From a virus, in the IMG/VR virus record IMGVR_UViG_3300014309_000025, positions 66 to 64,065 of that record: 64,000 nt of DNA; one strand, 5' to 3'. A model generated the notes under the pieces. The model made no database searches, was not told the DNA's origin, and saw nothing but the letters and a program-made list of their open reading frames with translations. Below, one piece after another: positions 1 to 64,000 of this stretch (positions within the stretch are counted from its first letter, which is position 1; each line of letters opens with the position of its first letter). Position numbers and translations under genes: made by a program.

Positions 1-462
1 AATTTACCTGATGGTATCAGAAAGGATCTGGGAACCGCAATAGCAACTGACCTATTCTCTATCCTGGAGAGGGCCAATACATATTTCCAAACAGAATGGG
101 AAAACTTAAATATCGTCCCGGCAAGAATTACACCCATTAAGGAATCCCTACCAGTTGAGGAAGAGGAGGAACGGCCTGCTCAAAAAGAACAGGAATTCCC
201 TTACCTTAGAGTATATTTCAGTAGTCAAACTGACAGGATAATAATAAGGGATTTTCTAATATCCAATGACCCGGAACTTAACATAATCTTTTACAAAGAA
301 ACATCTGAGGATGTCGATTATGTTATGCTTATAAAAATGTACTCTTTACAGGACGAAGGCTTATTAGAATTAATAAAAAGGGGTAAGCTATATTACCATA
401 TAAATGACATAGAAACGGAGACAGTATACTTTACCAAAAAAGAGATAGAAGAACTACGCTAA
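1..462 (+). CDS. hypothetical protein, 5'-truncated
   Basis: Frame 1 is open from position 1 (NLPDGIRKDLG...) to TAA at 460-462 and is followed by a terminator. Translated by hand; not in the ORF track. Confidence 0.75.
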   Translation, partial: NLPDGIRKDLGTAIATDLFSILERANTYFQTEWENLNIVPARITPIKESLPVEEEEERPAQKEQEFPYLRVYFSSQTDRIIIRDFLISNDPELNIIFYKETSEDVDYVMLIKMYSLQDEGLLELIKRGKLYYHINDIETETVYFTKKEIEELR

Positions 463-485
463 AAACTCTAGAACGCTAGTCTAAT

Positions 486-512
486 AAGGCACTCCAAGGT
501 GCCTTTTATTTT
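486..512 (+). terminator. intrinsic terminator
   Basis: Stem AAGGCAC (486-492) / GTGCCTT (499-505) followed by a T-rich tract. Confidence 0.7.
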
Positions 513-530
513 GGACTATTTAGAATAACC
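513..530 (+). promoter_or_regulatory. putative phage-specific promoter motif ACTATT-N4-ATAA
   Basis: GGACTATTTAGAATAACC. The motif recurs upstream of at least 9 genes (see findings). Confidence 0.55.
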
Positions 531-568
531 AGAGTCAACATAGACCATAACTAAATACACATAAGGAA

Positions 569-1504
569 ATGAGTAAATCCAGTAACAAATTAGGCCCAGA
601 AGATCCCAGAATCCCAAGGCCCATCGGTACCACATACATGGCAATGTCCTACCAAAAAGACCCCACTCCGGATGCTAAATCCCAGCTCATAAAACATATA
701 ATAAATAGCTACATCACTCAAGGATTTAGGCTCAATGGGACATCCTACAACCTAACCCAAATATCTATTCTATTAAATATTCCATTAGAAACTACTCTAG
801 AGGTATTCTCAGATGTAAGCCATAGTTTAGGGGCTTTACTATCACCAGAGAAGATAGAGGATACACTAAGAACTGCTATGACAATGTCTCTTACTTGGTC
901 ACTTCAGGATAAGGGAAGGCTGGAGAAACAGGTAGAGCTTCTTCTTAAGAGCCAAGGAGATGGATACAAACCCTTCATCACATCCGAAGTGAACAAGGCA
1001 TTAAAATCCAACCTCGACGCTAACAAGAATATTATGGACTTCTTCAAAACTTTAACCACTGCTAATACTACAGTAGTACAAATCTTCAACGGCTCTAAAA
1101 AGGAACAAGGTGATACCCTAAACACCCTTCAGGCCCTGAAGCTTATACAGGATCAGGCTTCCCTACCAGCCCCACAAAAAACAAACATCTTAGACAATAT
1201 TTACAATGAACATAATCTAGATCAAATAGAAGAACTAAATACTGAGAAGAATACAGAGAGTAGTTCAGTATTAGTAAATAATAAGGAATTAAAGGAACAG
1301 CTTAATAGGGATAGTAAAGCTCTTGGGCAAGAGGTAAGGGATCAAATCACCAGCTCTGCGCAGCCCTATCGCCCGCCCACCAAGGGGTCCGAGAGCCTTA
1401 TCGCCTACCCTGAAAAGGCTATTAAGCCCTTAAAAAAGGGTACCCACCAAGACTTTTTTAGGAGAAGAGGCCTTGATATCCAGGACGTGGATTTAGCCCC
1501 ATAG
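569..1504 (+). CDS. hypothetical protein (possible DNA-binding protein or small terminase)
   Basis: 311-aa ORF with an HTH-like segment (LTQISILLNIPLETTLEVFS), next to the repeat region. Function is inferred only. Confidence 0.6.
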   Translation: MSKSSNKLGPEDPRIPRPIGTTYMAMSYQKDPTPDAKSQLIKHIINSYITQGFRLNGTSYNLTQISILLNIPLETTLEVFSDVSHSLGALLSPEKIEDTLRTAMTMSLTWSLQDKGRLEKQVELLLKSQGDGYKPFITSEVNKALKSNLDANKNIMDFFKTLTTANTTVVQIFNGSKKEQGDTLNTLQALKLIQDQASLPAPQKTNILDNIYNEHNLDQIEELNTEKNTESSSVLVNNKELKEQLNRDSKALGQEVRDQITSSAQPYRPPTKGSESLIAYPEKAIKPLKKGTHQDFFRRRGLDIQDVDLAP

Positions 1505-1790
1505 CCCCCATTTCCCTGACCTTAAACCCTGATAATCCCTGTCCTAATCCCTATAGGGCCATCAGGGTTTTTCTGTGGGATTAGTGGGACCCAACTCAGG
1601 GATTAAGGTAAGGATTAAGGGCTTTAACTGGGTAAGGATCTAGGACAATAAGGCCTTGCAAGCTTAGTACAATAAAGCCCTTTCATGGCCCAAAGGAGCC
1701 CAAGCTTATGGGATATAAGGCCTTAATGGCCCTGATTGAGGATTAGGATAGCCTTAATGGCCCTACCCGGTAAAATAAGTAAAATAAAGG

Positions 1791-1828
1791 TTGCAAATGG
1801 TATTCCCGGATATTATATTTGCATTATA
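1791..1828 (+). promoter_or_regulatory. Bacteroidota primary-sigma promoter (-33 TTG / -7 TAnnTTTG)
   Basis: TTG at 1791-1793, a 20-nt spacer, then TATATTTG at 1814-1821, upstream of ORF 1855. Confidence 0.75.
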
Positions 1829-1854
1829 AAAATATGCAATAAAACCTTATAGCC

Positions 1855-2067
1855 ATGAATACACCTGAAACCAGATGGAAACAAACAAAGTTCCTAATCA
1901 CCATAATCTTTGGTATATTAGGGTTAACCATAGTTTGTGCCATATCCTCAAACCTCAAGGCTAAGGCGTTCCAAGAATGTATTGATAAAGAACCCACAGA
2001 CTGGGTTTGTGATAGTTGTTGGCAAGTTATCTACCATGAGCCTATACCTTTTAAAACTACTCATTAA
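1855..2067 (+). CDS. small membrane-anchored protein with a CxxC motif
   Basis: 70 aa, N-terminal transmembrane helix, C-terminal WVCDSCW, preceded by a consensus host promoter. Confidence 0.7.
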   Translation: MNTPETRWKQTKFLITIIFGILGLTIVCAISSNLKAKAFQECIDKEPTDWVCDSCWQVIYHEPIPFKTTH

Positions 2068-2453
2068 TATATCTGCTTCAGGTAGCTCAAGGGCAATCAA
2101 AACTTTAGTGCTAGCAGAGTAACTTACTGTACTTGCAATATATCTGCTTAAGGCGTATTGCTAGCTTATTTGTGTGCCCCAGCTTAGAGGCCATCAGGGC
2201 CCCTCAGAGCTTAGTAGGGCCTTATTGACCGAGAGCTTCGGGTAGCCATAATGGCCCTAGTCCTCAATGTAAGGTAAGTAGGCCTTAATGGCCCTAGGGA
2301 CTGTCAGGGTAGCGGCTTAGAGGTAGGGTAGGTGGGTAGGGCCTGAAGGTAGAGTTAAATATAAATATAAACGTAAATAAAATTTTTAAATTTAAAAAAT
2401 AAAAATAAATAAAAATATTTTGCAAAAATGTAACATCGTATTAATTTAAATCG

Positions 2454-2461
2454 TATATTTG
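2454..2461 (+). promoter_or_regulatory. Bacteroidota -7 promoter element
   Basis: TATATTTG starting 43 nt upstream of ATG 2497, in a very AT-rich upstream region. No -33 element at canonical spacing. Confidence 0.6.
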
Positions 2462-2496
2462 ATTGTTCAAATTTATTAACACTAAAATTTAAAAAA

Positions 2497-2892
2497 ATGA
2501 AAACAGCAGAAACAAAAGCAGCAGTAATCGTAAACACGATTGATGAAAAATTAGCAAAATTAAATCTTAACAATTTTGTTAAGAATGGTCAAGGTCGCAA
2601 AACTATCTACAAAGTAGATGAATCAATTCAGAATGATGAAAGAGCAATGAAAATTTTTAGACGTAATTTGCGCAGAGAAAAAACGCAAATTTGTTTAAAA
2701 GTTGTTCGAGAATATTCAGAAACAAAAAAACTTTCGAATGCAACTTTGAACGAGTTCAAAAAGTTTTATGCTGAAAAATTTATTACAAATGATTTCAGCA
2801 ATCAAAGTTTCTCTTCTGTAAATGAAGAAAAAGATTCTGCAAAATTGTATGAGTTAACTTTAGAAATTGTAAAAACTTCAATTTCTAAGTAA
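2497..2892 (+). CDS. putative early protein, hypothetical
   Basis: 131 aa, basic, A-rich leader, its own promoter and terminator; contains no Pro or Trp. Confidence 0.8.
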   Translation: MKTAETKAAVIVNTIDEKLAKLNLNNFVKNGQGRKTIYKVDESIQNDERAMKIFRRNLRREKTQICLKVVREYSETKKLSNATLNEFKKFYAEKFITNDFSNQSFSSVNEEKDSAKLYELTLEIVKTSISK

Positions 2893-2899
2893 ATTTATT

Positions 2900-2940
2900 A
2901 AGGTTGCAAAACTAAAAACTTTGCAACCTTTTTTATTTTT
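2900..2940 (+). terminator. intrinsic terminator
   Basis: Stem AAGGTTGCAAA (2900-2910) / TTTGCAACCTT (2920-2930) plus T tract. Confidence 0.8.
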
Positions 2941-2974
2941 TATCGTAATATAAATAAATTTAAAAATTAAAATT

Positions 2975-3091
2975 ATGAATACTTTACAGATTATTTTATC
3001 AGTTTTTGCAAGTTTAGTTTGTTTAGCTATTTTTGCAAGTTGGGTTAAATGCGCTATAATTTTAGTTACTAACGCAAAAAAAAGTAACTAA
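2975..3091 (+). CDS. 38-aa hydrophobic (membrane) peptide
   Basis: Translated by hand: MNTLQIILSVFASLVCLAIFASWVKCAIILVTNAKKSN*. A-rich leader; its stop lies 1 nt before the next ATG (3093). Confidence 0.65.
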   Translation: MNTLQIILSVFASLVCLAIFASWVKCAIILVTNAKKSN

Positions 3092-3092
3092 C

Positions 3093-3515
3093 ATGAAAAG
3101 TATAGAGACAATGCAAGCAGAAATATTAAGTACAAATAATACATTCTCTTTTGTACATAATATTAAAACAGTACAATTATTTATTATGAACATGATCGTA
3201 TTGTACTTACAAATGAATAGCGAAACAGACAGAGCAGCAATACAAAATAAGATATACTCTTTGTGCATTGCAGCAAAATTTAATTATAAGAGCTACTTAA
3301 AAAGATATGTGATACATACATATTTTAATAAGATGAGCAGTGACTATACTTTGCATATTATAATTAAATATTTTGATGCAATAAACTTTTTTGATGTTCA
3401 TAGTACAAATAAAAAGTTATTGCGTTATATCAAATATAAATTAGAAAATAAAAAAGAAAAAAATTTGATTGTATATATGAATGAAAAAAATAAGATTATG
3501 CATATTAGTCTATAA
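3093..3515 (+). CDS. putative early protein, hypothetical
   Basis: 140 aa, contains no Gly, Pro or Trp; followed by a terminator. Confidence 0.7.
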   Translation: MKSIETMQAEILSTNNTFSFVHNIKTVQLFIMNMIVLYLQMNSETDRAAIQNKIYSLCIAAKFNYKSYLKRYVIHTYFNKMSSDYTLHIIIKYFDAINFFDVHSTNKKLLRYIKYKLENKKEKNLIVYMNEKNKIMHISL

Positions 3516-3527
3516 CAATATTAAATT

Positions 3528-3566
3528 AAAGTTTAAAAGTTGTCCCCTAACTTTTAAACTTTTTTT
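3528..3566 (+). terminator. intrinsic terminator
   Basis: Stem AAAGTTTAAAAGTT (3528-3541) / AACTTTTAAACTTT (3549-3562) plus T tract. Confidence 0.75.
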
Positions 3567-3763
3567 ATTGATTGTCATGTACACCGAGCTCCTTTTCCAT
3601 AGCCCTATCCCCACTACGTGGTTAAGGGCTTTACCCCACACCTGAAAAGCAAAGGCTCTACCTGACACTTTTTCCTGATAGGCTTTCCGGACAAAAATAT
3701 CCTGGGGCTTTACAACACACATTAAGGGATTTAACACACAAGTAGCACTAAACAGATCCACAC

Positions 3764-3794
3764 AAAAAAGGGCCCCCTCCTGGAAGCCCCTTCT
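3764..3794 (-). terminator. terminator of the minus-strand operon
   Basis: The minus strand reads GGGCTTCC-AGGA-GGGGGCCC-TTTTTT just after the stop of ORF 3811..4065. Confidence 0.65.
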
Positions 3795-3810
3795 TATATA
3801 CCCTATACCA

Positions 3811-4065
3811 TTACCTGGGACATTCGGAGTTGTACTCTGCACCGGGTTCCTTAGCCTGAACATCTTCTGCCCTAATACCCTGCCCTATGATTTCAATCCG
3901 GCCTTCATCGAAGTACTGGGCATCCTTGAGTTCCATTTTATCGGGGTCTACCGGGGGTCTTAAAGCATACTGGTTACACCCGTAAAGGTATTCTACCTTG
4001 GCAACTATGATCCCTGTGAATCCGGTTACCCTGTCTTTTCCTAGTTTTCCAAATTTTTCATCCAT
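3811..4065 (-). CDS. hypothetical phage protein
   Basis: 84 aa with a DRVTGFTGI...YLYGC pattern typical of small SH3-like phage proteins. Confidence 0.75.
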   Translation of the reverse strand: MDEKFGKLGKDRVTGFTGIIVAKVEYLYGCNQYALRPPVDPDKMELKDAQYFDEGRIEIIGQGIRAEDVQAKEPGAEYNSECPR

Positions 4066-4131
4066 TACTTTGGGGTTTTAAGTTTATAAAATATAAGTAA
4101 AAGTGTTAAGTACTTCATAGCTTCGTTATTG

Positions 4132-4935
4132 TTATTTTATCCCAAATAATTTCTTAAACCAACTCCAGATTTTTTGCCAGAAAGTTAAACTTATTACCGG
4201 AATTTCTTCATCTGGTAGGGCTTCAATTTCCCCATCAAACCATGAAAAAGCTTTCTTTAGCTTTAGTTCATCCTTACATATAAGTTGGGGAGTTTGGGGG
4301 TAATCTTCACTGGGTAAATAAACCCTTATCAAGTTAAACCATTCCTGGAAGGTTACATTTGGGGTAAAAGTATTTTTTAAGTAATAAGTCCCTGCCCCAT
4401 TATTTAAATCCGAAGCATCATAACTATACTCATCGTCCGAGCAAGCTGATATGTAAATGGCATTCAAGGATACGGATTCTTTCATACCCTTTAATTGTGA
4501 GTATTTAGGTATTTCTGTTGTTGGGAAATACCTAACCTTAGCTCCTGCCTTTTTTAACATTCCCCCTGAAAAGCAAACATCCCAGAATATGAAAAATGGG
4601 AATCCTTTAGGTATCTTTGAAAGTATTTCTACTATCTCATAATCCCAAACTACACCATCCAGAAAGTATAACCCCTCATGGCCTAGGTTATTAGTCCCAT
4701 GTCCTGAGTGGGTATTAGCTATACCTGAAACTTCCCCCGAAATAGATAAGTCTACTAATCTGTTAAGCTCACTTAGGAATTTTACCTTAGTTACCTGTTT
4801 CTCAAAAATCGTAGTAGTATAAAACCCTAAAAATCCAAAAAGTGAGGACATATCCTCAGCATCATGTACACATTGATACAATTCACTATTTGTACCAACA
4901 TAATTTGTACCTAAACAACTTGCTTCTTTTCTCAT
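4132..4935 (-). CDS. caspase-family (peptidase C14) metacaspase-like protease
   Basis: Catalytic His in HSGHG, catalytic Cys in WDVCFSGG, plus ISACSDDEYSYD, GAGT and QTPQL motifs. Confidence 0.85.
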   Translation of the reverse strand: MRKEASCLGTNYVGTNSELYQCVHDAEDMSSLFGFLGFYTTTIFEKQVTKVKFLSELNRLVDLSISGEVSGIANTHSGHGTNNLGHEGLYFLDGVVWDYEIVEILSKIPKGFPFFIFWDVCFSGGMLKKAGAKVRYFPTTEIPKYSQLKGMKESVSLNAIYISACSDDEYSYDASDLNNGAGTYYLKNTFTPNVTFQEWFNLIRVYLPSEDYPQTPQLICKDELKLKKAFSWFDGEIEALPDEEIPVISLTFWQKIWSWFKKLFGIK

Positions 4936-4938
4936 AGT

Positions 4939-6054
4939 TTAAATTGTTAATCCCGTTGATAAATGCCCTTTGATTGCTGGATGGTGATTGTACCCGGTTA
5001 CTTCTAAGTCCCCAAATTTTATATCATTTATGCTACCCCATTTCCTATCAGATATTTTAAGAATGGGTAATGGGTAGGGTTCTCTGGTGAGTTGTTCCTT
5101 AACCTGATCCATGTGGTCTTCGTAAATATGAACTGAGTTACCCGACCATATAAATTCTCCTGGTACCATATTTACTAGTTTAGCTACGATGTGGGTTAGG
5201 AAGGCATATGATGCTATATTGTATGGTACCCCCAGGAAAGTGTCGCAAGACCGTTGGACCATTTTACAGTCCAGGTAATATTTCGGGATATTTAGGTCAT
5301 CATATTCTTTATTTACATCACCATCTGTAGCATTTGGGTTCATACCAAATCTATCTTCTTCACTAAAATTGTGGATTTTAGCAAAATAATCCTCCCTCTG
5401 GGTTGCTTTCATTAACCTGCAATTAAACATAAACAACATGTGGCAAGGGGGTAATGCCATGTAATCAAGTTCAGCTGGGTTCCAGGCTGTAACTATATGG
5501 TACCTAGATAATGGGTTTTCCCTTATACTAATAATAATGCTTTTTATCTGGTCTATATATGTTGAAAAATTATGTGTATCCGGCCCTTTCCATTTTCTCC
5601 ATTGAGCCCCATATACTCTTCCCAGATCACCCATTTTATAATCTTTATATTTGGGTAATTGCCAATAGTTTTGTTTAACCTTATCAACAAATTCCTTAAA
5701 ACTCATTACTCGGTATAAACCATCTTCATTCTGGTGAAGTATCCCGTTCTGGTCACTGTCACCATTTAATTCTGCAAACCTTAGATAATATTTATAGGCA
5801 TCCTTGTTCCAAATATTTACCCCGTTATCTACGAGGTATTTAATGTTTGTGTCCCCTTTTAGGAACCAAAGCATTTCATGAAGTACTGATTGCCAACTTA
5901 CTTCCTTAGTTGTTACTAATGGGAACCCTTCTTGGAGGTTAAACCTTTTTTCTATGGAAAATACATCCAATGTTTTTGGCATGTTTTCTCTTGCGGGGTC
6001 TTTCCAGGTACCTTTCTCTAGGATTTCGTCTAGGATTTCTAAATACTGTTTCAT
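4939..6054 (-). CDS. thyA: thymidylate synthase
   Basis: GFPLVTTK, EMLWFLKG, GRVYGAQWR, AWNP, ALPPCH, QRSCDTFLGVPYNIASY (Asn177-equivalent, dUMP-specific) and HIY motifs. Confidence 0.97.
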   Translation of the reverse strand: MKQYLEILDEILEKGTWKDPARENMPKTLDVFSIEKRFNLQEGFPLVTTKEVSWQSVLHEMLWFLKGDTNIKYLVDNGVNIWNKDAYKYYLRFAELNGDSDQNGILHQNEDGLYRVMSFKEFVDKVKQNYWQLPKYKDYKMGDLGRVYGAQWRKWKGPDTHNFSTYIDQIKSIIISIRENPLSRYHIVTAWNPAELDYMALPPCHMLFMFNCRLMKATQREDYFAKIHNFSEEDRFGMNPNATDGDVNKEYDDLNIPKYYLDCKMVQRSCDTFLGVPYNIASYAFLTHIVAKLVNMVPGEFIWSGNSVHIYEDHMDQVKEQLTREPYPLPILKISDRKWGSINDIKFGDLEVTGYNHHPAIKGHLSTGLTI

Positions 6055-6515
6055 CTGCGTCTTTTATTCTTAAATTGGTATGAAAATCCAATTATAGATT
6101 CCCAATTAAGGATATCTGTTATCATTATACTCGTTAATCGTTCCTTTACATTTAAAGAGAACCCTACTTCAAATGAGTATTTATGGATTTTATCTAGTTG
6201 AATAATCCTATCATCAGTATTAGTATTATAAAACCAATTCCTGTTTACCCCTATATAGGGGCACATTCCCCGAGTCTTAATTGAGATGCCCAGCCCCAGT
6301 TTGGCATTTTCAGTGTAGAAAATTCCCCCATCCTCATGTTGGCCCTTAATATCACCCCACCAAGCATGGGAGTATACCCCTATTTTATTAAACTGCTGAT
6401 TATAAAGCAATCCAGGGCGAAAAAAGGTTGGTTCTAGTGTCACAAAAAGCTGTGCACTTGATATTACTGAACTTAGTAGTAATAATAATACTAGACAGAT
6501 TCGGATATTTGCCAT
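6051..6515 (-). CDS. secreted outer-membrane beta-barrel-like protein
   Basis: Signal peptide ending SSA|Q, amphipathic beta strands, and C-terminal IIGFSYQF resembling a beta-signal. Confidence 0.6.
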   Translation of the reverse strand: MANIRICLVLLLLLSSVISSAQLFVTLEPTFFRPGLLYNQQFNKIGVYSHAWWGDIKGQHEDGGIFYTENAKLGLGISIKTRGMCPYIGVNRNWFYNTNTDDRIIQLDKIHKYSFEVGFSLNVKERLTSIMITDILNWESIIGFSYQFKNKRRR

Positions 6516-6736
6516 TTCACTATGTTTTTGTAGTTTTCATCTTGAGTAATACTGGGGTTTATTAATATATCATCTTCCGGTACTCCTCCCCCATATACTC
6601 GGTATACATATATATGTTTAGTTATATGGGTCAAATGTTCATCCTTTACTAATTCTAACGGGCCAAACTTATCCTCTAGGAGTTTCATTATCCAGCCAAT
6701 TCTGGTTATATCTTCAGATAGTTTAATTATAGCCAT
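6491..6736 (-). CDS. hypothetical protein
   Basis: 81-aa ORF tightly packed in the operon. Confidence 0.6.
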   Translation of the reverse strand: MAIIKLSEDITRIGWIMKLLEDKFGPLELVKDEHLTHITKHIYVYRVYGGGVPEDDILINPSITQDENYKNIVKWQISESV

Positions 6737-7174
6737 TTAATATATAATATTACAGGTTTTGAAATCCATTGTTAAAGCCATTGGTATTAACCATCTAAGG
6801 TTAGGGATTATATTCATGTTACCTTTCAACAGTAAATCAGTAACTCTTACTGCAATGACTTCTTCATCAGTAACTGTCTGGGGTATATTATGATTAAGGG
6901 GAAGTACTGAGGTAAATAGGTATACTTGCCATATTCCTTCCTTATTTGCACTTCCCATCATACCAAAATATTCCCAAGCTTTTATTAGTACTCCAGTTTC
7001 TTCCTGGAACTCTCTTGTCATGGCTTCATCTATAAGTTCCCCCAGTTCAATGTGGCCCCCTATACCATTTAATTTACCAGATTGCCAATCTGGCCTATTT
7101 TTCTTAATTAAGAAAACAAATTCCTTATTTGAACTAAAAAGGAAACCTAATACGTATCTTTTTAAATTAGCCAT
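6737..7174 (-). CDS. Nudix hydrolase
   Basis: Nudix box GGHIELGELIDEAMTREFQEETG. Confidence 0.92.
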   Translation of the reverse strand: MANLKRYVLGFLFSSNKEFVFLIKKNRPDWQSGKLNGIGGHIELGELIDEAMTREFQEETGVLIKAWEYFGMMGSANKEGIWQVYLFTSVLPLNHNIPQTVTDEEVIAVRVTDLLLKGNMNIIPNLRWLIPMALTMDFKTCNIIY

Positions 7175-7746
7175 CTTTCAAGTTTTGTTTTATAGGGTAA
7201 TCTTACTATATGACGGGGCATCCCACTTTGTGTTTTTCCCAGGCAATATACCCTATTATCCCCGGACATCTCCTCAACCTGGTGTATTCTATTTTTGTAA
7301 TCTTCACCATTATTTCCCCACATGAAGATTACTTCTCTAGACATGCTTAATGCCACCCCTAGCCAGTAATCACTGTTTGGAGTATTAAGTGTCCCCCTGT
7401 TCATAAGAGTTAATAATTTAGGATCAGTAGATATAACTGATAATAGGTTAACCATTATTACACCCCCGTAGCCCTCTTGTTTTGCAAAACCAATACATTT
7501 GGAAGTAGTTGGGTCATTATTAACCCCATTAGCTTTTGAAGGATTTACTCCTATGAAAACTATTTTGGCTAATGATTTATCCCAAGTTCTCCATAGGATA
7601 TACCTATGAGTTTGATCAAAGTTAAATATTGCCCCCCATGCCTTACTCTTTAGGTGTTGGGTTAATGTAGGGAAGTCTTCAATTTCTCTTTGATACTGTT
7701 TCTCCCATATAGAGGGGTTATGTTGTAACTGTGTCGGGGTTGCCAT
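7162..7746 (-). CDS. DUF1643-family protein
   Basis: HRYILWRTWD...FIGVNPSKA...DPT...GYGG...VNL...WG...PRH pattern. Confidence 0.8.
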   Translation of the reverse strand: MATPTQLQHNPSIWEKQYQREIEDFPTLTQHLKSKAWGAIFNFDQTHRYILWRTWDKSLAKIVFIGVNPSKANGVNNDPTTSKCIGFAKQEGYGGVIMVNLLSVISTDPKLLTLMNRGTLNTPNSDYWLGVALSMSREVIFMWGNNGEDYKNRIHQVEEMSGDNRVYCLGKTQSGMPRHIVRLPYKTKLERWLI

Positions 7747-7987
7747 GGGGTAAATCGGGTATATGGGTATGGATACTTGTTTGATGGGTGTCCATTACAT
7801 CCGCCCATTCCTTAACCAATTTAACCATTTTTTTATCCCCCCCATTTTTCTTGAGCCTTTTGGCATAGGTTCTTAACATTTTGGGGGCTAAAGGGTCCTG
7901 ACCCCTTAATACAAATACGGGTTCATCCTGGGGAATTTTACCGGTTGCATCTTGGATGCCATTGTAATCTTGTCTTGCGTGTCTCAT
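7718..7987 (-). CDS. hypothetical phage protein
   Basis: 89 aa with a DEPVFVLRGQD motif; preceded by the ACTATT motif on the minus strand (8006-8011). Confidence 0.75.
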   Translation of the reverse strand: MRHARQDYNGIQDATGKIPQDEPVFVLRGQDPLAPKMLRTYAKRLKKNGGDKKMVKLVKEWADVMDTHQTSIHTHIPDLPHGNPDTVTT

Positions 7988-8036
7988 TGTGTAGAATTTA
8001 TTATAAATAGTAGACTCATTGCCTTATAGTTACAAG

Positions 8037-8261
8037 TTATTCTTTTGCAAGAGCCTTCTCTTTTTGGCAATCTTCCCATCCTTGTGTATAAAATATAGAT
8101 GCTAATTCCATGAAGTTACTCATTAAAAGCTCAGCATTTATCTCTCTTGCTCGGTCATTCATAACTCCCCTAAGCTGTCCGGCTAATAATAAAGCTTGTT
8201 GGTCAAGAAACTCAGTATCTGTGGGTTTCTTTAGGGTTTCTTTTTTTCTTAGATTAAACAT
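8037..8261 (-). CDS. hypothetical protein
   Basis: 74 aa, preceded by the ACTATT motif on the minus strand (8279-8284). Confidence 0.65.
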   Translation of the reverse strand: MFNLRKKETLKKPTDTEFLDQQALLLAGQLRGVMNDRAREINAELLMSNFMELASIFYTQGWEDCQKEKALAKE

Positions 8262-8329
8262 GGGATCTATTTTTATATAATAGTATTTATTTTTTGCAAT
8301 ACCTATAACACTAACTAAAAACAGAAACT

Positions 8330-9361
8330 ATGTTAAACATTTTAGGAGTAGATGCAGGTAATGGGGTGATAGTCCACCCTTTAAAAGACCACTTAGTTGG
8401 TAATTTAGAACCAAGGGGTATATTCCACTCCAAGGAAGAACGCCAATGGTTCTCAAATTTTTCAGTACCTATATTTAAAGATAAGGAGACATGCTACAAA
8501 CACATCAAAGACGTAGATGTGATTATTGGAAACCCAGATTGTGGCCATTCTAGTATATTAGCCTACAGCCGGGCTAAAAAATTTAGTGACCCACATGACA
8601 ATGAAAGTTTAAACACATTCTTTCAGGCTATTCAGCATTATAAACCAGTTATATGGTTAATGGAAAATTTACCTGCCCTATTACAAGCCTACACTAAAGA
8701 GGATTTTATTGAAATGTTTAGGGATTACCAACTATCATTTATCATAGGATCGGTCACTCAATTAGGTAATTCCCAGAAAGACCGGGTAAGGTTAGTAATT
8801 ACGGGCGTACATAAGGATATGGAACAGGAATTGGGAAGATTAAAATATATAGGGCTAACTCGTAATTTAAGTAAATTTTACAGAGTTAATGAGCCAACAG
8901 TATGCAGGAACCTATTTAATGGTATAGATGTTAAAGGGGAAGATAAATCTATAGGACACATCCGGGAAGATATTGATACGGTGATAACTCTTTATGGGGG
9001 TTTTAAAATGCCATTAAGGGAAATTCAAAGGCATTGGGAACATAATTGGTGTGAAAAACGTTGGAAAGTAACGGGAGAGAATTTTACTACTGCACCGGGT
9101 GTATATAGGAATTTAGATGATGGATTCCCTGCAACAGCCAGAAAAGCTAATCGCCAATTCAACCAATTAGGTTTAACCATGTCTCCAAGGGAATTAGCAA
9201 GGATTCAGGGAGTACCCGATTCATTCAACATTGCAGTAGGAAGTAGGAAAAATTATTGGATTAATAAAGGTAGAGCTTCGGTTACCAAATGTCCCCCATA
9301 CGAGTTAGGGGTTTGGTTCTATGATGTCCTGAAGAGTACAATACCAAATTTGCTTAAATAA
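8330..9361 (+). CDS. C5-cytosine DNA methyltransferase-like protein (atypical motifs)
   Basis: Motif I GVDAGNG, motif IV GNPDCGHSS, motif VI MENLP, motif VIII QKDRVRL, motif IX MSPRELARIQGVPDSF. Confidence 0.8.
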   Translation: MLNILGVDAGNGVIVHPLKDHLVGNLEPRGIFHSKEERQWFSNFSVPIFKDKETCYKHIKDVDVIIGNPDCGHSSILAYSRAKKFSDPHDNESLNTFFQAIQHYKPVIWLMENLPALLQAYTKEDFIEMFRDYQLSFIIGSVTQLGNSQKDRVRLVITGVHKDMEQELGRLKYIGLTRNLSKFYRVNEPTVCRNLFNGIDVKGEDKSIGHIREDIDTVITLYGGFKMPLREIQRHWEHNWCEKRWKVTGENFTTAPGVYRNLDDGFPATARKANRQFNQLGLTMSPRELARIQGVPDSFNIAVGSRKNYWINKGRASVTKCPPYELGVWFYDVLKSTIPNLLK

Positions 9362-51093: not shown

Positions 51094-51873
51094 ATGGATA
51101 TCAGAGATATTAAAGAAGAAGTACCAAATGTAGGTACAAAGGGTTTAGAAGAAATTTTTAACCTGCAGTTAAACTTAGTTCAAAAGTATATTGACATAGA
51201 GGGGCTACCACCATACCCCATCAATATAAATACCCGGGCCGGCCAATCACTTATCAAAGATTTTATATCCAGGGTAATTGAGGAGTTGGGAGAAGCCTGG
51301 GAATCTTACTTGGTACTAATGGACATGTTTCATCGGGGTTACCAAAGAGAAGATATGGTACCCCACCTTCAAAATTTTAACGAGGAGCTAGGGGATGCTT
51401 TACACTTCCACATGGAGTTAATGATATACTCTGGTATATCTATTAAGGACATAACAGATGGAGATAACATAGATGCTATGACCAAACTTTTAAAGTTGGG
51501 GGAAGATAACCTTTTAACAGAATTTCCCAAACCCTCAACCTATGCTAGCTTTGTAGTAATAAAGGATGAGGACTTGGTAGATGAATTTTTAAGGGGTGGG
51601 AGGCATTTAAGTAAAAAACACATGGCTGTAATGGAGAGGTATTTGTGGAGAACTACTTATTGGTATCAGGTAGCTCGTAACACTCTTAAGAATAAGCCTT
51701 GGAAACAATCCCAGATGTTAACAGATGAGTTAACCTATAAACAATACATACTGAGAGCTAATGAATTGCTATTCCAGTTCTTTTATTTCATTGGGATGAC
51801 CCCTAGATCACTGTTTACTATTTATTATAAGAAGAACCTCATAAACTGTTTTAGGATTAAATCAAACTATTAA
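51094..51873 (+). CDS. all-alpha NTP pyrophosphatase (dimeric dUTPase/dCTPase-like)
   Basis: EELGEAWE, EELGDALHF, LKNKPWK and YYKKNLINCFRI. Confidence 0.8.
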   Translation: MDIRDIKEEVPNVGTKGLEEIFNLQLNLVQKYIDIEGLPPYPININTRAGQSLIKDFISRVIEELGEAWESYLVLMDMFHRGYQREDMVPHLQNFNEELGDALHFHMELMIYSGISIKDITDGDNIDAMTKLLKLGEDNLLTEFPKPSTYASFVVIKDEDLVDEFLRGGRHLSKKHMAVMERYLWRTTYWYQVARNTLKNKPWKQSQMLTDELTYKQYILRANELLFQFFYFIGMTPRSLFTIYYKKNLINCFRIKSNY

Positions 51874-51875
51874 AC

Positions 51876-52202
51876 ATGTCACAGGATACAATACTCTTTG
51901 GAAATTTTATAATAGCAATAGAATACTTTATAATTCCCCGATGGGACGATGCTGATGTACAAGAGTTTAAAATTGCTAAAACACCCACAAGGAGAAGGGT
52001 GCTTGGAAATCTACCCGGTAAAAATACTATAGATGTTCACAATGTAACTATCTTTAATAAAAAATGTAATTTTAATTCCACTATGGTTGAAATACCCTAT
52101 GCTGCTGTATTAGCTGTAAAGTCTCACATAGACGATGTTATATCCAAAACACCCGATTACAGTTCGGTAACTCTTAAACAATCCCTAGATGATTCAAAGT
52201 AA
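51876..52202 (+). CDS. hypothetical protein
   Basis: 108-aa ORF packed in the operon. Confidence 0.65.
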   Translation: MSQDTILFGNFIIAIEYFIIPRWDDADVQEFKIAKTPTRRRVLGNLPGKNTIDVHNVTIFNKKCNFNSTMVEIPYAAVLAVKSHIDDVISKTPDYSSVTLKQSLDDSK

Positions 52203-52971
52203 CCATGCTACATCTCAGGAAGCCTGGGAATTTATAAATGAATACCTTGTATTAAAAGAGGAAGAGGTAGTTGCTAATGGGGGTAATAGGTATGGTTCAC
52301 AAATATTATCCTATGACCACTTCATGGAGATTAATAAATCATGGGTTGATCCTAACTTTAACTTTGGGTATATGTTTGGGTATACCATGAGTAAGTGGAC
52401 AAGGTTAGTAAATAATTATGTTAACTTTGATTACTTGGACATAGTTAAAAGTGAGGTGCTGCTAAAGGAAAAGAAAAAAACTTCAAACTATAATATTGCA
52501 TATAAGTTTGACAATAACCATGGTAGTGGGAAAGGTTGCTTATTAAGTTTGGTTTTCCAAAGAAGGATTACCCAGGATAACCCAATACTAATCTTAAACT
52601 TAAGATCCTCAGAAGTAACTAAAAGGCTAATATTTGACTTTTTATTAATACAAAGGATGGCTGAATATGTATATGGAGAAAGAGCAAGTGTTAGTGTTAA
52701 ACTCTATTGTGCTAATATATATACATCTGGGGAAACTTTTACCATGTATGAAAATTACAAATCTATAAGGAAACTTTTAAAGGGATCAGAAACAGAAATG
52801 TCCCGAAGGGTATTAGCTGCAATGGACAAATTTGAAACAATAGACCCAGCAAAGGTCCCATATAAAATCCATAGAAGGGCAGTTAAACAACTCCAGAAGG
52901 ATGAAACTGGTAAACCTATATCGGGGGTACCAGATTTATTTGCTAAGAATTGTAAATTTAAAACCAATTAA
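52189..52971 (+). CDS. divergent thymidylate-synthase-fold protein (dCMP-type)
   Basis: GKGCLLSL (Cys), LRSSEVTKRLIFD (Asp at the 177-equivalent position) and ANIY. Confidence 0.65.
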   Translation: MIQSNHATSQEAWEFINEYLVLKEEEVVANGGNRYGSQILSYDHFMEINKSWVDPNFNFGYMFGYTMSKWTRLVNNYVNFDYLDIVKSEVLLKEKKKTSNYNIAYKFDNNHGSGKGCLLSLVFQRRITQDNPILILNLRSSEVTKRLIFDFLLIQRMAEYVYGERASVSVKLYCANIYTSGETFTMYENYKSIRKLLKGSETEMSRRVLAAMDKFETIDPAKVPYKIHRRAVKQLQKDETGKPISGVPDLFAKNCKFKTN

Positions 52972-52972
52972 T

Positions 52973-53275
52973 ATGAACAAAGTAAAAGTTACACCCGACC
53001 TACAAAGAGTTATAGTCCTACCCGACCCAGCACCAGATAAGATTGGTAGTATATTAGTGCCTGATACTTCTAAGAAAGATAAACCCGGTAAAGGTACAAT
53101 AGTTGTATCTGGGTTGGGAGAAGCTGACAGGCCAATGAGATATTTCCCCGGAGATAGGATAGTATACTCTTTGTATTCGGGTACTGAGGTTGAACTTAAC
53201 CTTGATGGTAAAGAGAAGACATATTTAATCATGAATCAGATGGACATCTGGTTAAAAATGGAGGATGCAGAATGA
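52973..53275 (+). CDS. groES: co-chaperonin GroES
   Basis: PDLQRVIV...GSILVPD...KPGKGTIV...GDRIVYSLYSGTEV...YLIMNQMDI; ATG at 52973. Confidence 0.9.
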   Translation: MNKVKVTPDLQRVIVLPDPAPDKIGSILVPDTSKKDKPGKGTIVVSGLGEADRPMRYFPGDRIVYSLYSGTEVELNLDGKEKTYLIMNQMDIWLKMEDAE

Positions 53276-54009
53276 GAGTATTCGGGGATTGCTACGAATT
53301 AATGAGTGAGGTAATGAGAGATGTCTATGAAATGGGACACAAGGTTCACCCTCACTCAATGCAAAATAAAATCGTAAAGGACGATGATAATTTTGAGACA
53401 AAGGAAATTATAAACTATAGTTATTGCCTAACATCAATGTCAAGAAAGGATTACTTATTCATAATAAGTAAATCCCTTAAGTGGGCAATGGCAGAATTTG
53501 AAGAGAGGATTGAGTCAAGGTTTGACGAGGGTCATGTAAACCCCGGAGAAGCCTGGAAGCTTAGGCCCGAAGTATGGAAACAATTTATAAATGAAGAAGG
53601 TAAGTTTGATTACACCTATAATGAACGTATAGACCCGGTTGGTAGGTTATATTTTATTGTAGATGAATTAAAAACAAACCCAGATTCAAGGCAATGTGTA
53701 TTACCAATATTTTATCCCAGGGATTTATATGAAATGGGAGGTCAAAAAAGAATCCCCTGTTCATTGCACTACCAATTTCTACTCCGGGATGGTAGACTTA
53801 ATATAGTGTACAATCAAAGGAGTGCAGATGTAGTAACCCATTTTGGTAATGACGTATTCCTGGCATGGATGTTAATGTCACATGTAGCTAAGGAAGTAGG
53901 GGTAAAAGAGGGTTATCTATTCCATAACATTGCCTCACTTCATGCCTATAAAAAAGATTGGCCAACTCTTAAGAAATCAATCTCTGACATAAAGGATGCA
54001 CAAGCTTAA
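53272..54009 (+). CDS. dCMP hydroxymethylase-like enzyme (thymidylate synthase fold)
   Basis: YTYNER, PDSRQ, IPCSLHYQF, QRSADVVTHFGND (Asp at the 177-equivalent position, as in T4 gp42) and SLHAY. Confidence 0.85.
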   Translation: MRVFGDCYELMSEVMRDVYEMGHKVHPHSMQNKIVKDDDNFETKEIINYSYCLTSMSRKDYLFIISKSLKWAMAEFEERIESRFDEGHVNPGEAWKLRPEVWKQFINEEGKFDYTYNERIDPVGRLYFIVDELKTNPDSRQCVLPIFYPRDLYEMGGQKRIPCSLHYQFLLRDGRLNIVYNQRSADVVTHFGNDVFLAWMLMSHVAKEVGVKEGYLFHNIASLHAYKKDWPTLKKSISDIKDAQA

Positions 54010-62893: not shown

Positions 62894-63451
62894 ATGAACT
62901 CAAAAAAGAAAGGAAATCGCAATGAGAGAAAAACTGCAAAGCTTTTTGAGACGTGGACCGGTTACCCATTCGAAAGAGTCCCTTCTTCTGGGGGTTTAAG
63001 GTGGGCTAAAAAATCAGATACAGTTGGTGATATAATCTGTACAGATGAACACCATTCAAGGTACTTCACCTTTTCTATTGAATGTAAGGCACATGCAGAA
63101 ATTAACTTTAGTGAATTACTACTTCCCAATAAAGGCGTTAAAATCTTAGAGTTCTGGTCCCAAGCTTGCGAGGATGCAACCAGAGCAAACCGGATACCCA
63201 TACTACTAATGAGGTTTAATGGTATGCCAAGTGATTTTTACTTTGTAGTATTAAGTTCGGATTACGTAGATTACCTTAACTACCACGATAACGATGGGAC
63301 TAGGTTTGTAATAAGTAACGTCCTAGAATACCTAGGGGATAAAATGGCTATAAGGATATTCCCTTCTACCGACTTATTTAAATGGCCCTATGGGGGTAAT
63401 GGTGGAGTACATAAATTAAATAAAGCCTATATAAAAAATGGTAAAACCTAG
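62894..63451 (+). CDS. Holliday junction resolvase (PD-(D/E)XK)
   Basis: SKKKGNRNER...RVPSSGG...GDI...SIECK. Confidence 0.85.
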   Translation: MNSKKKGNRNERKTAKLFETWTGYPFERVPSSGGLRWAKKSDTVGDIICTDEHHSRYFTFSIECKAHAEINFSELLLPNKGVKILEFWSQACEDATRANRIPILLMRFNGMPSDFYFVVLSSDYVDYLNYHDNDGTRFVISNVLEYLGDKMAIRIFPSTDLFKWPYGGNGGVHKLNKAYIKNGKT

Positions 63452-64000
63452 AGTATGGCTAGTTGCCTACATAAACCGGGACTACATTGAAAGTGTAGAG
63501 GATGACTTATTAAAGTATGGCTTTAAAGACATCAGAGCTTACATACCCACAGTAAGGATTTTAAAGAAGCAGTTTAAGGGAAGGAATATATATGAGAAGG
63601 TACCCTTATTATTCAACTATGGGTTCTTTCAACTAAACTTTGATAAGGCTTGCGATGCAACATACCTTATGTTACTTAAGAACCGAATACCCGCAATATT
63701 TGGGTGGGTAAAGGATCCTTTTGGGGTAATATCCAAAAAACCTAAACTGCAGCCCGATAATAAATCGGGTAACCTGGAAGCGGCTTCAGCTACTGAAAAA
63801 GAAATATCTGACTTATTATTAACAAGTGAACACTTATCGGTATTTTCAGATGAGGTAGTAGACCAACTAGAAGTGGGGGGCTTCTTAATACTTAAAGGCT
63901 ACCCTTATGAAAATATGCCCGCAGAAGTAGTCTCAGTTAGTAAGGCTAAGAAAGAAGTTAAGGTAAGGCTTTTATTAGAAACACTTATATCAGAAGTAAC
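63438..64000 (+). CDS. NusG/UpxY-family transcription antitermination factor, 3'-truncated
   Basis: Translated by hand from ATG 63438: WLVAYI...AYIPTVRI...VPLLFNYGFF...IFGWV (NGN domain), then LEVGGFLILKGYPYENMPAEVVSV...VKVRL (KOW). Not in the ORF track. Confidence 0.8.
   Translation, partial: MVKPRVWLVAYINRDYIESVEDDLLKYGFKDIRAYIPTVRILKKQFKGRNIYEKVPLLFNYGFFQLNFDKACDATYLMLLKNRIPAIFGWVKDPFGVISKKPKLQPDNKSGNLEAASATEKEISDLLLTSEHLSVFSDEVVDQLEVGGFLILKGYPYENMPAEVVSVSKAKKEVKVRLLLETLISEV

Follow-up and report, generated by a model that had tools for sequence, protein, structure and literature searches.

A conserved GG/CC-poor gene island in a group of uncultured phages and the selection that may maintain it

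Introduction

What could keep one short segment of a phage genome almost free of the dinucleotides GG and CC, when the rest of the same genome is loaded with them? This question is raised by a stretch of viral DNA of 64,000 nucleotides (nt), positions 66 to 64,065 of the IMG/VR record IMGVR_UViG_3300014309_000025, which is referred to here as the window. An AT-rich island at 2351-3543 of the window carries three small open reading frames (ORFs), one of which, ORF 2497, is conserved in relatives. A sequence-only reading had taken the island for first-injected or first-transcribed DNA near a genome end, lacking GG/CC either because a cytosine modification in the CC context would hinder host RNA polymerase or because this DNA must escape GG/CC-dependent recognition. 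The analysis reported here supports, with a probability of roughly three in four, a conserved immediate-early unit that is kept GG/CC-free by selection at the level of nucleic acid. The placement at a genome end and the polymerase-hindering mark were not borne out.

The Island and Its Boundaries

The island and its flanks are as follows.

2351-3543, no strand: AT-rich island poor in GG/CC; G+C 22.5%, GG/CC at 6 positions where about 31 are expected
2068-2350, non-coding: left flank; 49.5% G+C, 46 GG/CC in 283 nt, with copies of AGGCCTTAATGGCCCT
3544-3810, non-coding: right flank, GG/CC-dense, between the island and the end of a minus-strand operon

Dinucleotide counting places GG or CC in the island at start positions 2587, 2593, 2902, 2927, 3042 and 3043 and at no others, which are the five sites listed before, with GGG counted twice. 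Two of them belong to GGT glycine codons (2587 and 2593), two lie in the arms of a terminator stem (2902 and 2927), and the last two form TGG/G at a codon junction (3042-3043). From 3043 to 3544 there follows a GG/CC-free gap of 501 nt, and the four longest such gaps of the whole window (501, 309, 239 and 115 nt) all lie within the island, the fifth being 113 nt. GC and CG are common in the same DNA, as had been noticed (GC 36 and CG 18, with GG 5 and CC 1; A 529, C 118, G 151, T 395).

In 20,000 mononucleotide shuffles of the island, a mean of 30.5 GG/CC was obtained (standard deviation 4.9, minimum 13) against the 6 observed, and nowhere outside the island did any 500-nt window of the 64 kb hold less than half of the expected number. 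AT-richness is not the cause of the deficit, because GG/CC exceeds expectation in all 14 of the other 200-nt windows with less than 28% G+C. Steps from G/C to G/C occur in the island as often as predicted (60 versus 60.6 expected), with GG/CC making up 10% of them versus 71% in the rest of the window. Outside the borders GG/CC is dense on both sides, including 49 in the 284 nt at 3544-3827 on the right. The observation made from the sequence alone is confirmed.

Codon Choice and Protein Composition

The island holds the following elements. The promoter consensus used for calling TATATTTG and the TTTG-N19-TAnnTTTG matches is the one that we take to be valid for Bacteroidota.

2454-2461, + strand: match to the Bacteroidota -7 element (TATATTTG), 36 nt 5' of the ORF 2497 start codon
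2497-2892, + strand: ORF 2497, 131 amino acids (aa), isoelectric point 9.6 (basic), predicted all-helical; the conserved island gene
2900-2942, + strand: intrinsic terminator 1, an 11-bp stem (2900-2910 / 2920-2930) followed by a U run; -12.9 kcal/mol, z -4.3
2975-3091, + strand: ORF 2975, a 38-aa hydrophobic peptide with Gly 0, Pro 0, Trp 1; a 27-nt imperfect tandem repeat inside
3005-3035, + strand: full match to TTTG-N19-TAnnTTTG, within ORF 2975, 58 nt 5' of the ORF 3093 start codon
3093-3515, + strand: ORF 3093, 140 aa, basic; Gly 0, Pro 0, Trp 0
3528-3572, + strand: intrinsic terminator 2, with a 15-bp stem (3528-3542 / 3548-3562) made up of A/U almost throughout and a U run after it; -14.6 kcal/mol, z -5.0

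The two hairpins with their U runs are significant, so the terminators claimed for the island are upheld; the first CCCC is found in the loop of terminator 2.

The avoidance reaches both codon choice and the proteins. Across the three island ORFs (309 codons), GG/CC occurs three times within codons and once at a codon junction. When the same proteins were written in bulk codon usage, taken from 43 other genes of this phage, 29.6 GG/CC were obtained with a minimum of 16 in 5,000 trials, against the 4 observed in the coding parts. Synonymous permutation within the island, in which protein sequence and codon usage are both fixed, predicted 6.45 GG/CC at codon junctions against 1 observed (P 0.002); among the 16 junction dinucleotides GG was the most depleted (1 versus 5.1) and AG the most enriched (31 versus 23.8). 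The choice among synonymous codons is thus also shaped by GG/CC avoidance where two codons meet. The codons ACC, TCC and GCC are absent, and usage departs from the bulk at GCA (84% versus 32%), ATT (61% versus 33%) and AGG (0 versus 45%).

Gly, Pro and Trp together account for 3 of the 309 island residues versus 12.2% in the bulk, while Ala and Arg stand at normal levels. ORF 2497 contributes two Gly and neither Pro nor Trp, and the residue counts of all three ORFs agree with those reported earlier. Not one of 5,000 random 140-codon bulk segments contained two or fewer Gly, Pro and Trp residues. The proposal that more than base composition keeps GG/CC scarce is supported: the island is a self-contained unit and its deficit survives both the shuffles and the synonymous permutation.

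Equivalent Islands in Relatives

Related loci were collected in two sets. The first comprised 82 loci fetched via the large terminase subunit (TerL) or the ORF 2497 family. In 59 of them a homologue of ORF 2497 lies in an island of 0.3-1.2 kb, with 21-25% G+C versus 36-39% around it and an observed/expected ratio (O/E) of GG+CC of 0.42-1.10 versus 1.20-1.48; many of the other 23 loci end too soon upstream to include the homologue. The second set consisted of 80 loci reached via a more distant branch of the family, of which 25, spanning 46-79% identity, were examined. All 25 have an island (19-24% G+C; O/E 0.46-0.97 versus 1.16-1.59 outside), the longest GG/CC-free gap falls in or at it in 25/25, and the second longest does so too in nearly all. 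It had been allowed that relatives might lack an equivalent island, or that the ratio might become unremarkable once corrected for composition; the island is present in 59/82 and 25/25 examined loci, and the corrected ratio is still deviant.

The avoidance at codon junctions is also found in these relatives. Junction GG/CC amounts to 0.44 of expectation in their conserved gene, being below it in 57/57 unique sequences, and to 0.17 in their second small gene, below it in 22/22; in both cases the sequences are related and not independent. Between this second gene and ORF 3093 there is no homology. For ORF 3093 no homologue was found, and its single-sequence structure model is too poor for use (predicted local distance difference test, pLDDT, 48).

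A complete relative of 84.8 kb (G001) allows the map to be compared. Its only long stretch below 27% G+C is the island. Gene order is shared, 40 of 99 ORFs of the phage studied here having collinear matches in G001, and homologous genes flank the island on either side in the two genomes; the island locus is therefore orthologous and old. ORF 2497 aligns convincingly with its gut-group homologues at 29-30% identity, a divergence close to that of the weaker of the other genes shared with G001 (roughly 26-60%). The island unit is hence orthologous across a large group of phages of 78-87 kb and has a composition of its own (19-25% G+C, with GC/CG steps replacing GG/CC). This finding speaks against recent transfer or chimerism, a possibility left open by the sequence-only reading, since the island occupies the same map position in these genomes.

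The position of the island relative to genome ends was considered as well. Four of the five relatives' records checked have terminal repeats and are rated complete, and in two of them (G002 and G003) the record break falls inside the island. Since the island spans the break in these two, the maps are circular with no fixed end at the island. Together with a terminase of T4 type, this gives no support to regarding the island as first-injected DNA near a genome end.

The ORF 2497 family comprises at least 282 clusters by profile search. In the 149 representatives tallied, the mean residue contents are G 2.1%, P 0.8% and W 0.1%, compared with A 5.6%, R 3.3% and K 16.6%. The two closest homologues of ORF 2497 are 65-68% identical to it; their DNA was not found in two metagenome scans. 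No closer relatives were reached via the upstream neighbour gene or by an A3-led scan of viral contigs, genome-contig scans returned no member of the family, and the island DNA has no match among 50,697 phage records.

Searches for function gave few leads. Pfam, PHROGs, NCBIfam and PADLOC, none of which is a dedicated anti-defence library, yielded no known family for the island proteins; ORF 2497 gives sub-threshold chance matches in Pfam, and its family has no counterpart in the PDB either by sequence profile or by fold (Foldseek). Similarity of the island proteins to a known anti-defence protein or a helix-turn-helix regulator was likewise not found in Pfam, PHROGs, NCBIfam, PADLOC or the PDB. 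The structure model of ORF 2497 is helical (pLDDT 74); its only fold match in BFVD is an uncharacterised Myoviridae sp. protein, and the ESM Atlas offered no usable lead.

Two side observations concern the related loci. Tandem copies of AAATATTAAGTGC stand directly upstream of the island in one of them (L075, 1476-1520), and fewer copies in another (L053). The locus L088 (JAKPAB010000072.1) is a 7.7-kb contig whose TerL is 60% identical to that of this phage and which was binned with a metagenome-assembled genome of Bacillota; it is probably a phage contig binned by mistake and is uninformative on the host.

Promoters and the Limits of the Zone

Canonical (tandem) Bacteroidota promoters head the island in the relatives. 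The low-GG/CC zone begins at the first island promoter and stops at the terminator, the preceding 100 nt being bulk-like, and a zone that starts at a promoter therefore fits a property tied to the transcription unit. In the complete relative G001, three canonical promoter matches lie in or beside the island (one of them recurring in the terminal repeat) and two elsewhere.

In the window itself the motifs are less telling. TATATTTG (2454-2461) is not accompanied by a canonical -33 element at the customary distance. The motif TAnnTTTG occurs 98 times in the window versus 84 expected, a count not above chance, and the full TTTG-N19-TAnnTTTG pattern 5 times versus 3.9 expected; the match at 3005-3035 is, by its position, a candidate internal host-type promoter. 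The host-type -7 promoter ascribed to the island is accordingly supported by the canonical promoters of the relatives and not by the motif counts of the window.

A neighbouring unit bears on whether such promoters call for GG/CC-free DNA.

1791-2067, + strand: TTG-N19-TATATTTG promoter-like site and ORF 1855 (70 aa); GG/CC at bulk level, 23 versus 14.7 expected

In seven related loci, 12 of 12 island promoters are followed by DNA with a GG+CC O/E of 0.25-0.70, whereas 24 of the 25 other canonical host-type promoters are followed by 400 nt with an O/E of 0.94-1.74. Transcription from a host promoter as such needs no GG/CC-free DNA, because these 24 promoters and the ORF 1855 unit, already entered as a caveat by the sequence-only reading, precede normal or high GG/CC. 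The same observations speak against a CC-linked mark that hinders host RNA polymerase.

Beside these results, four or five further canonical Bacteroidota promoters were observed within 8 kb upstream of the island in the related locus L120 (591-6900), with equivalents in L122, L119 and L148. Two of those upstream promoters are followed by a conserved leader, ATATCAAWTTTAAAAATAGAC; the region looks like an early-gene region of bulk-like composition.

The Rest of the Genome

The remainder of the genome bears the opposite signature. Its ratios are 1.58 for CC/GG, 0.42 for CG and 0.87 for GC; GGGG/CCCC reaches 4.2 times expectation, while CGCG and GCGC stand at 0.04 and 0.13. GG/CC is enriched whichever of the three codon phases or two strands is considered, and likewise in each of the 14 intergenic regions of at least 80 nt; at codon junctions it amounts to 1.68 times expectation. 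Bacteroides phage B40-8, a single reference genome, is ordinary in this respect (CC/GG 1.04, CG 1.16). Genome-wide depletion of GG/CC, as in the avoidance of restriction sites or of the protospacer-adjacent motifs (PAMs) of CRISPR systems, was not seen in the bulk, and GGCC and CCGG stand at 0.98 and 1.04 of Markov expectation. R-loops, or a strand asymmetry of G runs, were considered and rejected, GG and CC being equally enriched on the bulk coding strand. A difference between island and bulk in Shine-Dalgarno signals was also rejected, as both lack such words (SD-like words precede 8/53 bulk genes).

The contig is linear, 64,065 nt long, rated 75% complete and derived from a wetland metagenome; no terminal repeat was found in it at that completeness. 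One sequencing run contains the whole 3-kb stretch around the island and is the probable source of the assembly, hence not independent, and a second run contains 11% of the sampled words. The large terminase is 57-70% identical to TerL of uncultured phages, mostly gut contigs of about 85 kb. The host is most likely a member of Bacteroidota. Size, gut origin and Bacteroidota-type promoters, these alone being the pointers, suggest that the relatives may belong to the proposed gut family Flandersviridae (PMC8008677).

Genes related to cytosine are present. Pfam identified a C5-cytosine methylase (8330-9361), a dUTPase_2-family protein and a thymidylate-synthase-like paralogue among the genes at 8330-9361, 51094-51873, 52189-52971 and 53272-54009, with no Pfam match for ORF 52189-52971. 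All four have homologues in the 84.8-kb relative and could form a candidate cytosine-modification pathway. A separate thymidylate synthase at 4939-6054 on the minus strand (371 aa) covers positions 1-264 of 266 of the Pfam profile and has about 100 extra residues as insertions. Neither a Sigma70_r2 nor an r4_2 domain was found in the contig when a phage sigma factor was looked for; ORF 63438-63998, which runs off the contig end, has no Pfam match at E 0.01, including as a NusG paralogue. No tRNA genes were found, and Rfam has no match in window positions 1-9000.

Among side observations on composition, the codons preferred in the bulk include ATA, used for 55% of Ile, and AGG, used for 45% of Arg; GCWGC/GCNGC exceeds Markov expectation in the window (1.38) and in G001 (1.49-1.51), and GATC is under-represented in the window bulk (0.56).

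Explanations of the Island

It is proposed that GG/CC is kept out of the conserved unit by selection on nucleic acid, for which the proteins pay in Gly, Pro and Trp. Host-type promoters would open the unit, the gene for the basic helical protein of the ORF 2497 family would follow with one or two small genes that vary, and intrinsic terminators would close it. In the version that we favour, at somewhat less than even odds, the phage deploys a GG/CC-dependent activity from which the island unit would be exempt. The targets would be other DNA or RNA inside the cell during infection; host genes and the remaining early units would be struck, and the island unit could still be expressed. The activity may consist in a mark on DNA, in a coating protein or in a shut-off effector, conceivably even in the cassette's own basic protein. 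A mark or shut-off effector deployed by the phage would explain why the bulk is enriched, why only one early unit is exempt and why promoter and terminator bound the zone. A mark on cytosine could be supplied by the cytosine-related genes conserved in the family (the C5-cytosine methylase, the thymidylate-synthase-like paralogue and dUTPase_2). Slightly more tentative is the view that infected cells hold a factor, phage- or host-made, which reads the bare GG/CC step on DNA or RNA, and that this step serves as a two-state code in a large group of Bacteroidota phages, with the bulk loaded and one immediate-early unit without it.

Several points weigh against selection of this kind. The overall depletion is mild in the gut relatives, where the O/E is 0.42-1.10, and the junction P value of the window becomes modest once it is weighed against 16 dinucleotides. 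Among 77 unique gene segments of the gut relatives, synonymous A/T-to-G/C changes that would create GG/CC were realised in 13/34 cases versus 43/77 of the others, which is not significant (odds ratio 0.49, P 0.10). Lysine-rich helical proteins are naturally low in Gly and Pro. A protective mark on GG/CC finds no support in restriction-site patterns, as 6-mer palindromes containing GG/CC stand at 0.73 of Markov expectation and those without at 0.95; in G001 the same test gave 0.89 and 0.97. The early timing of the unit is read from promoter motifs, the reader of GG/CC and its making by the phage are hypothetical, and the nucleic-acid-binding role of the ORF 2497 protein is a guess from its charge, its model matching no known fold.

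Some of these points would suit an explanation without any reader of GG/CC, in which the island is a by-product: extreme AT pressure, the adaptation of codons in a very highly expressed early gene, and proteins that are helical and rich in lysine would jointly have eliminated the greater part of its GG/CC. The codon usage wholly unlike that of the bulk, the mild depletion in relatives, the polymorphism test and the helical nature of the ORF 2497 family all agree with it. We nevertheless regard it as unlikely: junction avoidance persists when protein sequence and codon usage are fixed, G/C-to-G/C steps keep their expected frequency with 90% of them being GC/CG, the other AT-rich windows are rich in GG/CC without exception, and Ala and Arg are normal where Gly, Pro and Trp are nearly absent. 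Selection might instead act on RNA, with the transcript avoiding a factor that grips or cuts at CC/GG (Rho on C-rich RNA, or an RNase) or staying unstructured for fast translation. On the message strand CC is indeed scarcer than GG (O/E 0.09 versus 0.26 in the island; 0.42 versus 0.86 pooled over 57 related islands), the zone in relatives runs from first promoter to terminator, and terminator 2 is nearly devoid of G-C pairs. Avoidance of Rho alone, however, would not remove GG; UC and CU occur in relatives without depletion (1.11), and other early units with the same promoters show no depletion. Pairing potential is not minimised either, the palindromes TGCA (10.9 versus 3.3 per kb in the bulk) and TTGCAA (4.2 versus 0.46) being enriched in the island. 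An explanation at the RNA level is thus given as little weight as the by-product.

Escape from host defences that depend on GG/CC seems improbable to the same degree. The defences would be type I-B CRISPR recognising a CCN/NGG PAM, or restriction at sites with CC/GG, and the island would evade them up to the point at which early anti-defence proteins take effect, on the model of the site-free first-step-transfer DNA of T5. A GG-type PAM does exist, for PMC9367070 describes a type I-B system of B. fragilis in which the targeted protospacers have G after them at positions 2 and 3. In T5 and its relatives, according to PMC10644984, sensitivity to restriction and CRISPR arises only via sites in the first-entering DNA. 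The island contains neither GGCC nor CCGG nor any other site bearing GG/CC, and a small unit with strong promoters and small uncharacterised proteins resembles anti-defence loci. Yet a cut anywhere kills the phage unless entry is stepwise, and the relatives' maps are circular with a T4-like terminase. The supposed target is enriched 1.6-fold in the bulk, GCGC (1.68 versus 0.14 per kb), TCGA (1.68 versus 0.67) and TGCA are more frequent in the island than in the bulk, and the island proteins found no match in the four family libraries searched. Of the earlier proposal of escape from GG/CC recognition, the existence of a suitable PAM therefore stands, while the composition of bulk and island runs counter to it. 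Recent horizontal import from an AT-rich genome, or an assembly chimera, is very improbable. The borders are sharp, G+C drops by 14 points, the island DNA is unmatched in the phage collection, and its own promoter and terminators are moron-like; against this, the locus is orthologous with a gene conserved in relatives, both flanks are phage-like, and the source run, although not independent, contains the whole 3-kb stretch. We know of no cellular genome with a CC/GG ratio near 0.2.

Neighbouring Features

Around the island, AGGCCTTAATGGCCCT-like palindromic words occur five times upstream (1718-1733, 1749-1764, 2188-2203, 2243-2258 and 2280-2295) and a TTAAGGGCTTTAAC-like word three times on both sides (1614-1628, 3621-3635 and 3721-3735). 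Both kinds of word may be candidate operator or binding sites.

An ORF on the minus strand at 3510-3863 (117 aa) overlaps the island end and looks spurious. An 84-aa ORF at 3811-4065, also on the minus strand, is followed by a strong terminator-like hairpin (3800-3759, minus strand) and is likely the last gene of the minus-strand operon.

Significance and Comparison With Known Systems

A ban on one dinucleotide that removes three amino acids from the proteins of one conserved early unit, and that is opposed by the unit's own replicon, points to an undescribed selective agent. The agent might mark DNA, effect shut-off, belong to a defence system or work on a two-letter word at the level of RNA. 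If the two-state code is true, the unit alone would escape marking, shut-off or cleavage. Finding the agent would explain how these phages, very common in the gut and the environment, stage the first minutes of infection, and would allow immediate-early genes of uncultured phages to be located by a simple sequence signature.

Narrow searches of the literature turned up no account of islands of this kind. Morons are autonomous promoter-gene-terminator units of deviating composition in phage genomes. Like them, the island brings a promoter and terminators of its own and departs strongly from its neighbours in G+C content; unlike them, it is neither sporadic nor recent, and throughout a large group of phages it is conserved at one and the same place on the map. 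Phages are also known to avoid motifs, as in restriction-site avoidance and the depletion of CRISPR PAMs. There, as here, a short word is rarer than composition predicts, but in the present case the avoidance affects only a single unit of 1.2 kb, is almost complete there, is accompanied by a 1.6-fold enrichment elsewhere and leaves other short palindromes enriched. The Alc protein of T4 discriminates host from phage templates by means of modified cytosine. In that system one class of DNA stays transcribable while the other is shut off, and the present phage family likewise has cytosine-related enzymes; the candidate discrimination proposed here would, however, be by sequence, i.e., the lack of GG/CC, and not by base chemistry.

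A parallel in layout is offered by the pre-early (first-step-transfer) DNA of T5 and BF23, which in PMC10644984 is described as a first-expressed block transcribed by host polymerase, whose freedom from sites decides nuclease sensitivity and which has a repeat-rich non-coding border. The island would share the short first-expressed block and the host polymerase, both predicted from promoter motifs, and it too has repeat-rich non-coding flanks. It differs in that a fixed end or two-step entry is not evident, given the circular maps of the relatives and the T4-type terminase. It differs further in that a dinucleotide, in place of particular sites, is avoided on both strands, the proteins are reshaped, and the rest of the genome is enriched in the very step that the island avoids.

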